From a virus (Duplodnaviria > Heunggongvirae > Uroviricota > Caudoviricetes): a stretch of 4,059 bases of DNA. Shown piece by piece: positions 47 to 4,059 of the stretch. The notes beneath the pieces were generated by a model. It did not search any database. It had not been told where the DNA came from and saw nothing but the letters and a program-made list of their open reading frames with translations. Location: the IMG/VR virus record IMGVR_UViG_2681813315_000026. The stretch is one strand, 5' to 3'. The position numbers and the translations under genes are program-made. How positions within the stretch are numbered: position 1 is the stretch's first letter; every line of letters begins with the position of its first letter.

Positions 47-61
47 GCTTTTTTATACTAA
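47..61. other. attL common core (O) of the lambda site-specific recombination site
   Basis: Exact 15-bp core GCTTTTTTATACTAA read directly at 47-61, followed by GTTGGCATTATAAAAAAGC, which is characteristic of the phage P' side. Confidence 0.85.
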
Positions 62-140
62 GTTGGCATTATAAAAAAGCATTGCTTATCAATTTGTTGC
101 AACGAACAGGTCACTATCAGTCAAAATAAAATCATTATTT
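62..140. promoter_or_regulatory. attL P' arm with IHF site H' and Int arm-type binding sites
   Basis: TATCAATTTGTTG at 88-100 fits the IHF consensus WATCAANNNNTTR. Tandem arm-type Int sites AGGTCACTAT (108-117) and CAGTCAAAAT (118-127) are followed by a weaker third copy. The int stop codon (135-137) lies inside this arm, as in lambda. Confidence 0.7.
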
Positions 141-1205
141 GATTTCAATTTTGTCCCACTCCCTGCCTCTGTCATCACGATACTGTGATGCCATGGTGTC
201 CGACTTATGCCCGAGAAGATGTTGAGCAAACTTATCGCTTATCTGCTTCTCATAGAGTCTTGCAGACAAACTGCGCAACTCGTGAAAGGTAGGCGGATCC
301 CCTTCGAAGGAAAGACCTGATGCTTTTCGTGCGCGCATAAAATACCTTGATACTGTGCCGGATGAAAGCGGTTCACGACGAGTAGATGCAATTATGGTTT
401 CTCCGCCAAGAATCTCTTTGCATTTATCAAGTGTTTCCTTCATTGATATCCCGAGAGCATCAACATGCAATGTTGTAGGGATGGCAATTTTTACGCCTGT
501 TTTGCTTTGTTCGACATAAAGATATCCATCTACGATATCAGACCACTTCATTTCGCATAAATCACCAACTCGCTGCCCGGTAACAACAGCCAGTTCCATT
601 GCAAGTCTGAGCCAACATGGTGATGATTCTGCAGCTTGATAAATTTTCAGGTATTCGTCAGCCGTAAGTCTTGATCTCCTTACCTCTGATTTTGCTGCGC
701 GAGTGGCAGCGACCGGGTTTGTTGTTATATGGCCTTCAGCTATTGCCTCTCGGAATGCATCGCTCAGTGTTGATCTGATTAACTTGGCTGACGCCGCCTT
801 GCCCTCGTCTATGTATCCATTGAGCATTGCCGCAATTTCTTTTGTGGTGATGTCTTCAAGTGGAGCATCAGGCAGCCCCCTCCTTATTGCTTTAATTTTG
901 CTCATGTAATTTATGAGTGTCTTCTGCTTGATTCCTCTGCTGGCGAGGATTTTTTCGTAGCGATCAAGCCATGAATGTAACGTAACAGAATTATCACTGT
1001 TGATTCTCGCTGTCAGAGGCTTGTGTTTGTGTCCTGAAAATAACTCAATATTGGCCTGTATTGCTTCAGTGATTGCTATCCTCCTGTCTCGGCCTAAACC
1101 AAACTCTTTACCCGTCCTTGGGTCCCTGTAGCAGTAATATCCATTGTTTCTTATATAAAGGTTAGGGGGTAAATCCCGGCGCTCATGACTTCGCCTTCTT
1201 CCCAT
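135..1205 (-). CDS. int: Tyrosine site-specific integrase (lambda Int)
   Basis: 356-aa ORF whose translation I recognise as lambda Int along its whole length (N-terminal arm-binding MGRRRSHERRDLPPNLYIRNNGYYCYRDP, C-terminal catalytic region ending HELRSLSARLYEK...HLLGHKSDTMASQYRDDRGREWDKIEIK). It sits next to attL and its 5' end overlaps xis by 23 nt. Confidence 0.97.
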   Translation of the reverse strand: MGRRRSHERRDLPPNLYIRNNGYYCYRDPRTGKEFGLGRDRRIAITEAIQANIELFSGHKHKPLTARINSDNSVTLHSWLDRYEKILASRGIKQKTLINYMSKIKAIRRGLPDAPLEDITTKEIAAMLNGYIDEGKAASAKLIRSTLSDAFREAIAEGHITTNPVAATRAAKSEVRRSRLTADEYLKIYQAAESSPCWLRLAMELAVVTGQRVGDLCEMKWSDIVDGYLYVEQSKTGVKIAIPTTLHVDALGISMKETLDKCKEILGGETIIASTRREPLSSGTVSRYFMRARKASGLSFEGDPPTFHELRSLSARLYEKQISDKFAQHLLGHKSDTMASQYRDDRGREWDKIEIK

Positions 1206-1401
1206 TTCTGATCCTCTTCAAAAGGCTACCTGTTACTGGTCGATTTAAGTCAACCTTTACCGCTGATTCGTGGAACAGATACTCTCTTCCATCCTTAACC
1301 GGAGGAGGGAATATCCTGCATTCGCGCACCCATCGACGAACTGTTTCAAGGCTTCTTGGGCGTCGCTGGCGTGCGTTCCACTCCTGAAGTGTCAAGTACA
1401 T
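1183..1401 (-). CDS. xis: Excisionase (lambda Xis)
   Basis: 72-aa ORF MYLTLQEWNARQRRPRSLETVRRWVRECRIFPPPVKDGREYLFHESAVKV..., recognised as lambda Xis. Overlaps the int start by 23 nt as in lambda. Confidence 0.95.
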   Translation of the reverse strand: MYLTLQEWNARQRRPRSLETVRRWVRECRIFPPPVKDGREYLFHESAVKVDLNRPVTGSLLKRIRNGKKAKS

Positions 1402-1430: not shown

Positions 1431-1449
1431 AAAGCCGCCATCAGGCGGC
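1425..1449 (-). terminator. Candidate intrinsic terminator at the end of the 55-aa ORF
   Basis: Minus-strand GCCGCC-TGAT-GGCGGC (6-bp all-GC stem, 4-nt loop) immediately followed by TTTTTCTTG. The stop codon of the 55-aa ORF lies in the loop. The U-tract overlaps the cII site of pI. Confidence 0.5.
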
Positions 1450-1608
1450 TTGGTGTTCTTTCAGTTCTTCAATTCGAATATTGGTTATGTCTGCATGTGC
1501 TATCTGCGCCCATATCATCCAGTGGTCATAGCAGTCATTGATGTTCTCTGCTTCGATAACTCTGTTGAATGGTTCTCCATTCCATTCACCTGTGACTCGG
1601 AAGTGCAT
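1441..1608 (-). CDS. Hypothetical 55-aa protein (lambda orf55 equivalent)
   Basis: Not in the supplied ORF track (under 60 aa). ATG at 1608 to TGA at 1441 translates to MHFRVTGEWNGEPFNRVIEAENINDCYDHWMIWAQIAHADITNIRIEELKEHQAA. It starts 39 nt beyond xis, the spacing and size I recall for the annotated 55-codon ORF next to xis in lambda. Confidence 0.6.
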   Translation of the reverse strand: MHFRVTGEWNGEPFNRVIEAENINDCYDHWMIWAQIAHADITNIRIEELKEHQAA

Positions 1609-1850: not shown

Positions 1851-2453
1851 ATGAGCTATTTTCTGCGCAAAAAATGGATGGTAAATTTGTCCGGGGCAGG
1901 AAAAATTTTATGGGCGCTAAACATGAAAAAAGATTCGTATCCTTATTTGATTTGCATGACAGTTTCAGGCCTGATCTTTATTTTCTTTTTCTTCTGGTGG
2001 CGGGCAGATATTTACAGGGTCACGTTTCTTAATCAGAGTATATCCCACTATTACATTCTGTTTAGCATGGGAATAGCTTTTCTGTTATCTCTGTTTTGGG
2101 TTAAGAAGGGGATAGTAAAACAAAGCGGCTGGAAGAGTCTGTCAGCATACCTTAAGGTTTATGCAGGGATGTGCATATTTGCTGGATTTTTTCTGATTAT
2201 ACCCCTTACAACACTAACTTATTTTTTGCCTGGAGAGACATCGTCTTATGTTGCACCGTATCGGTATACTTCCGGTAGTTCAAAAAGTTGTTCTGGAGCT
2301 GAGGTGGATGACCCCGATCTACATGAGAATATTCGCATTTGCTATCCGTATGGCAATTATGAGTACGATAATATTATCTATGTTGAAAAGAAAATTAATA
2401 CATTAGGTGCGGTAGTAACATATGCACAGACCGCGCGTGATGATACTGAATGA
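1851..2453 (+). CDS. Predicted integral membrane protein of unknown function (moron-type accessory gene), three TM helices plus a roughly 75-aa C-terminal domain
   Basis: 200-aa ORF on the strand opposite to every other gene here. Three long hydrophobic segments (YPYLICMTVSGLIFIFFFFWW; ISHYYILFSMGIAFLLSLFWV; VYAGMCIFAGFFLIIPLTTLTYFL) with basic residues in the presumed cytoplasmic loops (MKKDS, KKGIVKQSGWK). The C-terminal domain is acidic and Tyr-rich with two Cys. Local base composition is visibly AT-rich compared with int and exo. The start is uncertain: in-frame ATGs at 1851, 1878 and 1923, none with a strong SD; M at 1923 (MKKDSYPYL...) would give 176 aa. Confidence 0.6.
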   Translation: MSYFLRKKWMVNLSGAGKILWALNMKKDSYPYLICMTVSGLIFIFFFFWWRADIYRVTFLNQSISHYYILFSMGIAFLLSLFWVKKGIVKQSGWKSLSAYLKVYAGMCIFAGFFLIIPLTTLTYFLPGETSSYVAPYRYTSGSSKSCSGAEVDDPDLHENIRICYPYGNYEYDNIIYVEKKINTLGAVVTYAQTARDDTE

Positions 2454-2663: not shown

Positions 2664-2885
2664 TCACTTCGAACCTCTCTGTTTACTGATAAGTTCCAGA
2701 TCCTCCTGGCAACTTGCACAAGTCCGACAACCCTGAACGGCCAGGCGTCTTCGCTCATCTATGGGATCGCCACACTCACAACAATGAGTGGCAGATATAG
2801 CCTGGTGGTTCAGGCGGCGTATTTTTATTGCTGTGTTGCGCTGTAATTCTTCAATTTCTGATGCTGAATCAATGATGTCTGCCAT
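2664..2885 (-). CDS. TraR/DksA-family C4 zinc-finger protein (phage TraR-like, orf73-type)
   Basis: 73-aa ORF with the C-x2-C-x17-C-x2-C motif (CCECGDPIDERRRLAVQGCRTCASC). It aligns by eye with plasmid F TraR (CEACGNPIPEARRKIFPGVTLCVEC). Size and position match the TraR-like small protein reported for the exo-xis region of lambdoid phages. Confidence 0.85.
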   Translation of the reverse strand: MADIIDSASEIEELQRNTAIKIRRLNHQAISATHCCECGDPIDERRRLAVQGCRTCASCQEDLELISKQRGSK

Positions 2886-2937
2886 CTTCCATTAATCCCT
2901 GAATTGTTGGTTAATACGCTTGAGGGTGAATGCGAAC

Positions 2938-2962
2938 AATAAAAAAGGAGCCTGTAGCTCCC
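2938..2962 (-). terminator. Weak candidate intrinsic terminator between the 71-93 aa ORF and the TraR-like gene
   Basis: Minus-strand GGAGC-TACAG-GCTCC followed by TTTTTTATT. The stem is only 5 bp, so it is marginal. Confidence 0.3.
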
Positions 2963-2983
2963 TGATGATTTTGCTTTTCATGC

Positions 2984-3265
2984 TCACCGTTCCTTAAAGA
3001 CGCCGTTTAACATGCCGATCGCCAGGCTTAAATGAGTCGGTGTGAATCCCATCAGCGTTACCGTTTCGCGGTGCTTCTTCAGTACGCTACGGCAAATGTC
3101 ATCGACGTTTTTATCCGGAAACTGCTGTCTGGCTTTTTTGATTTCAGAATTAGCCTGACGGGCAATACTGCGAAGGGCGTTTTCTTGCTGAGGTGTCATT
3201 GAACAAGTCCCATGTCGGCAAGCATAAGCACACAGAATATGAAGCCCGCTGCCAGAAAAATGCAT
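2984..3265 (-). CDS. Hypothetical small protein in the exo-xis region (orf61 position), 93 aa from the first ATG or 71 aa from ATG at 3199
   Basis: ORF in the supplied track. The first ATG (3265) is 10 nt downstream of the orf63 stop and has no SD. The internal ATG at 3199 (MTPQQENALRSIARQ...) has GGGA 8 nt upstream. No motif recognised. It does not fit the lambda orf61 geometry as I recall it (61 aa overlapping orf63 by 20 nt): that frame gives only 9 codons here. Confidence 0.5.
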   Translation of the reverse strand: MHFSGSGLHILCAYACRHGTCSMTPQQENALRSIARQANSEIKKARQQFPDKNVDDICRSVLKKHRETVTLMGFTPTHLSLAIGMLNGVFKER

Positions 3266-3275
3266 TCAGTGGTTG

Positions 3276-3467
3276 TCATACCAGGTCTCTCTCATCTGCT
3301 TCTGCTTTCGCCACCATCATTTCCAGCTTTTGCGAAAGGGATGTGGCTAACGTATGAAATTCTTCGTCTGTTTCTACTGGTATTGGCACAAACCTGACTC
3401 CAATTTGAGCAAGGCTATGTGCCATCTCAATACTCGTTCTTAACTCAACAGGAGATGCTTTGTGCAT
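3276..3467 (-). CDS. orf63: Lambda Orf63-like small protein
   Basis: 63-aa ORF with a strong SD (GGGAGG 4-5 nt before the ATG). It overlaps the next gene by 28 nt. Size, overlap and position next to orf60a/exo match lambda orf63. Sequence identity not verified. Confidence 0.75.
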   Translation of the reverse strand: MHKASPVELRTSIEMAHSLAQIGVRFVPIPVETDEEFHTLATSLSQKLEMMVAKAEADERDLV

Positions 3468-3618
3468 ATCGCCTCCCGTTTATTATTTATCTCCTCAGCC
3501 AGCCGCTGGGCTTTCAGTGGATTTTGGATAACAGAAAGGCCGGGAAATACCCAGCCTCGCTTTGTAACGGAGTAGACGAAAGTGATCGCACCTACCCGGA
3601 TATTATCGTGAGGATGCG

Positions 3619-3622
<4 letters not shown>
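3440..3622 (-). CDS. orf60a: Lambda Orf60a-like small protein
   Basis: The ORF track starts at 3628 (MAMTHPHD..., 62 aa). Starting at the second Met (3622) gives 60 aa, with the ATG overlapping the exo stop as ATGA, which is the lambda arrangement. Confidence 0.7.

Positions 3623-4059
<437 letters not shown>

Follow-up and report, generated by a model that had tools for sequence, protein, structure and literature searches.

The window analysed here, a stretch of 4,059 nucleotides, covers the left end of a prophage of lambda type that occupies attB beside ybhC in an E. coli-like chromosome; the features identified in it are collected in Table 1. E. coli chromosomes match the window from its position 1, with ybhC ending immediately to the left in the best chromosomal match. 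The phage records match from position 47 to about 4003, at 99.8% for phage 2B8, 99.1% for phage 434 and 97.4% over 74% of the window for lambda. Since ybhC adjoins and the phage homology begins with the att core at 47, the window contains the attL of a prophage at attB; the first-pass annotation was thus right in calling this DNA a prophage, as positions 1-46 are E. coli chromosome. The gene order exo-orf60a-orf63-orf61-orf73 is common to lambda, 434, 2B8, E. coli prophages, and Stx phage 1717. As in lambda, orf73 follows the other four genes, and the prophage has the same attB site and the same int/xis. Compared to lambda, the window carries residues I22 and A49 in Orf73, a 200-aa ORF on the opposite strand in place of ea22/ea8.5, a long orf61, and an exo interrupted by IS100.

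Table 1. Features of the 4,059-nt window, with positions counted from its first nucleotide
Feature	Position	Strand	Evidence or remark
att core GCTTTTTTATACTAA of attL; host DNA (1-46) to the left, phage P' arm to the right	47..61	+	core annotated in lambda and 434
int, lambda-type tyrosine integrase	135..1205	-	PF00589, PF09003
xis (excisionase)	1183..1401	-	PF07825, E 3.9e-41
orf55 homologue	1441..1608	-	PHROG 676, E 1.7e-39
200-aa predicted membrane-protein ORF	1851..2453	+	shared with phages 434 and 2B8 and with E. coli prophages
orf73 homologue, TraR-family small zinc-finger protein	2664..2885	-	ORF, 71/73 vs lambda Orf73, PF01258, PHROG 54
C4 zinc-finger core C35-x2-C38-x17-C56-x2-C59, with extra C36 and C53	2709..2783	-	alignment of relatives
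R46-R47, aligned with TraR R48/R49	2745..2750	-	alignment; kept in 88/90
N-terminal DxxDxA (D3-I-I-D6-S-A8)	2862..2879	-	read from sequence; motif of the TraR branch
Shine-Dalgarno-like AGGGA, 10 nt 5' of the orf73 ATG	2896..2900	-	upstream sequence
Terminator-like hairpin (2945-2963) and T-run, just 5' of orf73 on the coding strand	2935..2963	-	8-bp stem, 4 GC pairs, TTTTATTGTT tail
orf61-type gene, long form, intact (93-aa ORF), immediately preceding orf73 in the pL operon	2984..3265	-	
orf63 (DUF1382)	3276..3467	-	E 7.8e-31
orf60a (DUF1317)	3440..3628	-	E 2e-38
exo, lambda-type, 3' part, cut by IS100	3619..3997	-	alignment A2: identity to lambda exo ends after 3997
IS100 (IS21 family), terminal 62 bp, istB-side end	3998..4059		plasmid search and alignment

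Several neighbours of orf73 deserve comment. The 200-aa ORF, which has three hydrophobic segments, lies between orf73 and orf55 on the strand opposite to the pL operon and occupies the place of lambda ea22/ea8.5, as it does in phages 434 and 2B8. It coincides with a low-GC island (36-39% versus 44-50% in the flanks). Searches of this ORF against Pfam, NCBIfam, and PADLOC gave no match, and PHROG 1416 is matched by its C-terminal half only. The ORF resembles a moron, that is, an independently transcribed accessory gene, possibly expressed in the lysogen. By analogy with lambda Orf55, which has been modelled as resembling the RNA polymerase (RNAP) inhibitor Gp2 of T7 (PMC8614690), the Orf55 homologue may be a second small RNAP-directed protein carried by the prophage. 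Between orf55 and xis, at 1432-1451, we noticed a hairpin with a perfect, GC-rich stem of 8 bp and T-runs on both strands, and the phage 434 record has a terminator annotated at the equivalent position; another terminator-like hairpin (2488-2511) comes after the 200-aa ORF.

Upstream of orf73, the orf61-type gene is called by RefSeq as 71 aa, from an internal ATG at 3199. In reference lambda (L001, 3489-3801), a frameshift splits the corresponding sequence into orf61 and a 60-aa ORF, which agrees with the published statement that, compared with its Stx-phage versions, Orf61 of lambda is truncated (PMC8614690). A 31-aa ORF (2892-2987, minus strand) lies between orf61 and orf73, and its counterpart in 434 and SfI is a 29-aa hypothetical protein. 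As it contains the terminator-like hairpin 2945-2963, this ORF may be an RNA structure and not a coding sequence. An Rfam search of the window at gathering thresholds found nothing.

The orf73 gene and its alleles

The orf73 frame translates from ATG to TGA as 73 codons plus the stop, giving the product MADIIDSASEIEELQRNTAIKIRRLNHQAISATHCCECGDPIDERRRLAVQGCRTCASCQEDLELISKQRGSK, without any frameshift or internal stop. Against five informative relatives (lambda, an E. coli prophage, Stx phage 1717, SfI, and Stx2a_WGPS9), dN/dS was 0.07-0.26, and the ORF is under purifying selection. These ratios and the Shine-Dalgarno-like AGGGA upstream, at whose equivalent position a ribosome-binding site is annotated in the phage 434 record OL657226, establish orf73 as a real gene.

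The window protein is identical to lambda Orf73 at 71 of 73 residues (97%), the changes being M22I and V49A, and M22I is the sole change relative to the commonest E. coli prophage/434 allele (WP_000763363.1, for which the RefSeq name is 'TraR/DksA family transcriptional regulator'). A49 is the majority state, found in 73 of 90 homologues, and is the usual residue among E. coli prophages, in phage 434, and in Stx phages. At position 22, the 90 homologues vary freely (A in 39, M in 32, K in 10, and H in 6), and in the HMMER alignment this position pairs with an Ile of TraR; I22, encoded by an ATA codon at 2820-2822 on the minus strand, is a minority allele. The exact I22 protein was found neither in 50,697 phage records, where the best match was 98.6%, nor among the 71 IMG/VR close copies examined. 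The IMG/VR scan with the family alignment returned near-identical copies only (96-99%), and distant phage homologues were taken individually. At least 29 blocks of a public assembly collection carry a gene for the identical protein, and every place shown that reaches the flank has the attB/ybhC context. In all five of the places shown that extend far enough, exo beside the I22 orf73 is of full length, which is indicative that the I22 allele predates the IS100 insertion.

Variation of another kind was seen in the Stx2a_WGPS9 homologue (L006, 1246-1467). It matches the window protein over residues 1-16 except at two positions and is identical to it throughout from residue 31 onward, and the intervening residues 17-30, the end of the N-terminal helix, have strongly diverged. 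This pattern suggests an intragenic mosaic or a fast-evolving linker.

Family placement, fold, and conserved residues

Profile searches place the protein in the TraR/DksA family, to which it had been assigned in the first-pass annotation. Pfam PF01258 (zf-dskA_traR) matched residues 33-64 with 35.8 bits against a gathering score of 24.9 (E = 7.8e-9), PHROG 54 'DksA-like zinc-finger protein' matched with E = 5e-25, and a PDB sequence search returned YbiI (2kgo) and F TraR in RNAP complexes (5w1s, 6n57, and others), the TraR alignment being near full-length. The two alignments recommended along with that assignment agree with it, since BLASTP gave 37% identity to F TraR (E 6e-10) and the lambda exo-xis protein is the nearly identical Orf73. 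For NCBIfam TIGR02419 (C4_traR_proteo, the TraR subfamily), the alignment is full-length (protein 3-64 on profile 1-64), and the score of 55.9 bits lies below the cut-off of 59.7. The corresponding scores are 54.7 for lambda Orf73 and 55.7 for the common E. coli allele, compared with 80.5 for F TraR and 78.6 for a P2-type homologue; the shortfall is therefore shared by the Orf73 clade as a whole and does not speak against the window copy. The equivalog profile NF010268 (conjugal transfer protein TraR) gave 27.1 bits against a cut-off of 108, so the protein is a family relative of F-plasmid TraR and not its orthologue. A PADLOC scan gave a chance-level match for the orf73 protein only (mREase_II, E 0.0022) and none for its neighbours, and no evidence of a defence role for orf73 was found.

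The AlphaFold2 model (78 homologues; mean pLDDT 86) consists of a helix at residues 5-27, a short zinc ribbon with the cysteines, and a helix at residues 57-70. In Foldseek against the PDB, the top two matches were TraR on E. coli RNAP (6n57_M and 5w1s_M; probability 1.00, TM 0.55-0.57), followed by YbiI, DksA-RNAP, and DksA2. The TraR matches had weak E-values (1.9e-3) and an rmsd of 4.5 A, as expected for an extended 73-aa protein in which the helix angles differ between the free and bound states; free models are reported to differ from bound TraR in just these angles (PMC8614690). The model has the architecture of the TraR branch, with 73 aa, a single N-terminal helix, a zinc-ribbon globular domain, and a C-terminal helix. 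The window protein is thus a TraR-branch member of the DksA/TraR family and belongs to the lambda Orf73 orthologue group, as determined by its 71/73 identity and its position after exo-orf60a-orf63-orf61 on the pL-operon strand.

Lambda Orf73 shares with the window protein its 73 aa, six cysteines, DxxDxA, RRR stretch, and C-terminal helix. F TraR, the best match among solved structures (PDB 5W1S, 6N57, and others), is likewise of 73 aa with a helix/C4 zinc ribbon/helix arrangement, a DxxDxA tip, the CxxC-x17-CxxC spacing, and the RR pair, but it is only ~34-37% identical, has four cysteines rather than six, and is encoded in the conjugative tra operon, whereas orf73 lies in the phage pL operon. 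DksA and YbiI share PF01258 with the window protein. DksA uses the same secondary-channel site on RNAP as Orf73, but it has about 150 aa, carries its acidic tip on a coiled coil, and depends on ppGpp for its full effect, whereas Orf73 and TraR, each with a single N-terminal helix, act on their own. The chromosomal YbiI has 88 aa natively, the solved 2kgo construct having 108 residues.

In an alignment of relatives down to 34% identity, F TraR included (alignment A3, from which the Serratia phage PS2 homologue was omitted because the tblastn frame and the annotated CDS disagreed), the invariant residues were D6, A8, C35, C38, E44, R46, R47, G52, C56, C59, and E64, the last being a conserved acidic residue of the C-terminal helix. 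In the larger set, DxxDxA is kept in 86 of 90 homologues (D3 in 88, D6 in 87, and A8 in 89). [quoted passage not shown] TraR R48/R49, the counterparts of R46-R47, make contacts with the secondary-channel rim helices and beta' Si3 (PMC9239242). All the TraR hallmarks defined by the Gourse laboratory are present, namely DxxDxA, the C4 finger, the Arg pair, and a C-terminal helix with an acidic residue. M22I and V49A touch none of the A3-invariant residues, and both positions vary among relatives. Given the 97% identity and the tolerance of these two positions, the I22/A49 variant would be expected to behave like lambda Orf73.

The cysteines require a more careful description. A C-x2-C-x17-C-x2-C motif had been read in the sequence as unambiguous. 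It is indeed present exactly, with a single occurrence in the six-frame translation of the window, and it arose in 9 of 2000 mononucleotide shuffles; the word is slightly too strong, as the protein has six cysteines (residues 35, 36, 38, 53, 56, and 59) and not four. Alternative registers can be read (C35-x2-C38-x14-C53-x2-C56, and a CxxCxxC run at 53/56/59), and C36 and C53 leave alternative sets of zinc ligands formally possible. C35, C38, C56, and C59 are the family-defining four, since they are invariant with the same spacing in alignment A3, and the CxxC-x17-CxxC spacing, on whose conservation in homologues the family reading had been staked, is kept in 81 of 90 full-length homologues from a large protein collection.

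The two additional cysteines differ in their conservation. C53 is kept in 82 of 90 close homologues, near the conservation of the canonical four, and C36 in just 35 of 90. C53 recurs in Klebsiella, Erwinia, and Pseudomonas phage relatives and is not present in the TraR, P2-type, and yarpen homologues. In the published view, both extra cysteines possibly disturb folding; contrary to this, C53 looks selected from its distribution among homologues. Conceivably, C53 may be a functional redox residue or an alternative metal ligand that makes the Orf73 clade inhibit-only.

Probable action on host RNA polymerase and expression of the IS100-carrying copy

Lambda Orf73 has been studied experimentally in some depth (PMC9239242). 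It competes with DksA for RNAP, inhibits rrnB P1 with an IC50 of about 50 nM, the same as TraR, without ppGpp, and also inhibits rpsT P2; the substitutions D3N/D6N and D3A/D6A lower its activity. In vivo, induced Orf73 complements a dksA deletion, activity of rRNA and r-protein promoters is reduced, and host growth is slower when Orf73 is supplied from pL or a plasmid. In lysogens induced with mitomycin C, the phage yield and burst size are 3-4 fold higher with Orf73, and Orf73 left the tested lytic promoters of lambda unaffected. The host promoters thrABC, argI, and rpoH P3 were activated weakly or not at all (PMC9239242), whereas TraR activates amino-acid and tra promoters. The suggestion in the first-pass annotation that the prophage probably encodes a modulator of host transcription gains support from the 71/73 identity to lambda Orf73, an RNAP-binding inhibitor (PMC9239242). 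Its description of the protein as an RNAP-binding mimic of DksA/ppGpp holds for inhibition only, since lambda Orf73 inhibits rRNA promoters like TraR and activated the tested host promoters weakly if at all.

We are confident, short of certainty, that the window protein is the Orf73 of a lambda-type prophage, an inhibitor that acts on host rRNA promoters through the RNAP secondary channel and raises the phage yield. Since orf73 sits in the exo-xis block of the pL operon, the protein would be a delayed-early product, dependent on N antitermination and appearing soon after infection or induction of the prophage. Its homology with lambda Orf73 and F TraR predicts that it binds RNA polymerase directly and not DNA. 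The N-terminal helix with its DxxDxA tip would extend through the secondary channel in the direction of the active site, the globular domain, formed by the C4 zinc ribbon and bearing R46/R47, would rest on the channel rim in contact with beta' Si3, and the C-terminal helix would contact beta Si1. The predicted action would not need ppGpp, and it would divert host transcription from ribosome synthesis, with slower host growth and a higher phage yield as the result.

The copy examined here has an additional feature that bears on its expression. The last 62 bp of the window are 100% identical to positions 1892-1954 of a Y. pestis CO92 plasmid and correspond to one end of the IS100 that is annotated in E. 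coli SCEC020001. The junction in exo is at 3997/3998. The element separates orf73 from pL and has the same orientation as the pL operon; the window, which is probably a contig, breaks off within it. A mosaic exo allele at the break in phage similarity near 4003, which was considered because an E. coli match with a RecT neighbour covered 4004-4059, was rejected, as the alignment and plasmid search show an IS100 end. The native hexamer GGATTC (window 3992-3997; L004, 7273-7278; L003, 10773-10778) immediately precedes IS100 here and likewise an independent IS100 in bet of E. coli SCEC020001; this could be coincidence or reflect a preferred target site. For transcripts from pL to pass the hairpin upstream of orf73, N antitermination would be required. 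A promoter scan found 6 sigma-70-like sites against 8.1 expected from shuffles, no excess, and we therefore claim no private promoter for orf73. Expression of orf73 in the IS100-carrying prophage is not assured.

Orf73 could accordingly be pictured as intact but effectively silent or decaying cargo, cut off from pL by a polar IS100 in a prophage that is becoming defective, with no modulation of host transcription; such a view concerns the expression of this copy only and not the function of the protein. The IS100 end starting at 3998 within exo, the terminator-like hairpin just 5' of orf73, and the fact that the window, probably a contig, stops within IS100 are all in its favour, but we consider it unlikely, because the gene has neither frameshift nor stop and is one residue from the commonest allele, because the identical protein occurs in at least 29 public blocks, with exo of full length in all five shown places that extend far enough, so that the allele predates the IS, and because IS100 is co-oriented with the operon. 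Moreover, N-modified RNA polymerase is classically said to read through polar IS insertions and terminators, as Adhya, Gottesman and de Crombrugghe reportedly found in 1974.

The phage might instead use orf73 for other ends. Its main role would then be a bias between lysis and lysogeny, or a block of host replication initiation ('bin'), and not the lytic yield, acting through the RNAP contact or another target. Passages in two papers (PMC9239242 and PMC8614690) implicate orf73 together with ea22, ea8.5, and orf55 in inhibiting the initiation of host replication, report that orf73 deletion lowered host survival and lysogenisation efficiency, and describe one earlier study with the opposite sign, in which the deletion raised the yield, and with a pro-lysogenic phenotype. 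Against this, non-polar point mutations and an in-frame deletion show that orf73 raises the yield 3-4 fold, and dnaA mRNA was reduced weakly if at all (PMC9239242). In the prophage examined, ea22 and ea8.5 are absent, which leaves the four-gene set incomplete, and nothing in the sequence points to a second target; a role of this kind as the main one therefore seems quite improbable. A zinc-finger regulator that binds DNA, or a zinc ribbon unrelated to TraR that has only the CxxC...CxxC spacing in common with it, is hardly credible. In favour of such a reading, short C4 motifs do recur across many unrelated folds, the Foldseek list includes ribosomal zinc ribbons and E6 domains (E above 0.3), and PADLOC weakly matched a methyl-directed restriction enzyme (E 0.0022); against it, the similarity to TraR extends beyond the finger over residues 1-64, including the DxxDxA helix, the top folds are TraR, YbiI, and DksA only, and TraR-family proteins act without binding DNA (PMC9239242).

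With the protein read as a secondary-channel inhibitor of the lambda Orf73 type, its gene, family, mechanism, and position are all published, and the finding is in this sense already known; a small phage regulator of host RNA polymerase was correctly recognised from its sequence alone, and little biology is added, with orf73 occurring in hundreds of E. coli prophages and in lambdoid and Stx phages. The conservation of C53, the minority allele I22, and the IS100 in exo were not found in PMC9239242 and PMC8614690. One further speculation, which we hold to be very unlikely, is that read-through or outward transcription from IS100 uncouples orf73 from pL and N and gives low constitutive Orf73 in the lysogen; if true, a factor of the phage lytic phase would have been turned into a standing, ppGpp-independent brake on host rRNA synthesis. 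For annotation, the name 'Orf73/TraR-family RNAP-binding regulator' and the marking of exo as disrupted by IS100 would be of value; the disruption of exo by IS100 bears on the inducibility of the prophage and on the expression of its exo-xis block.
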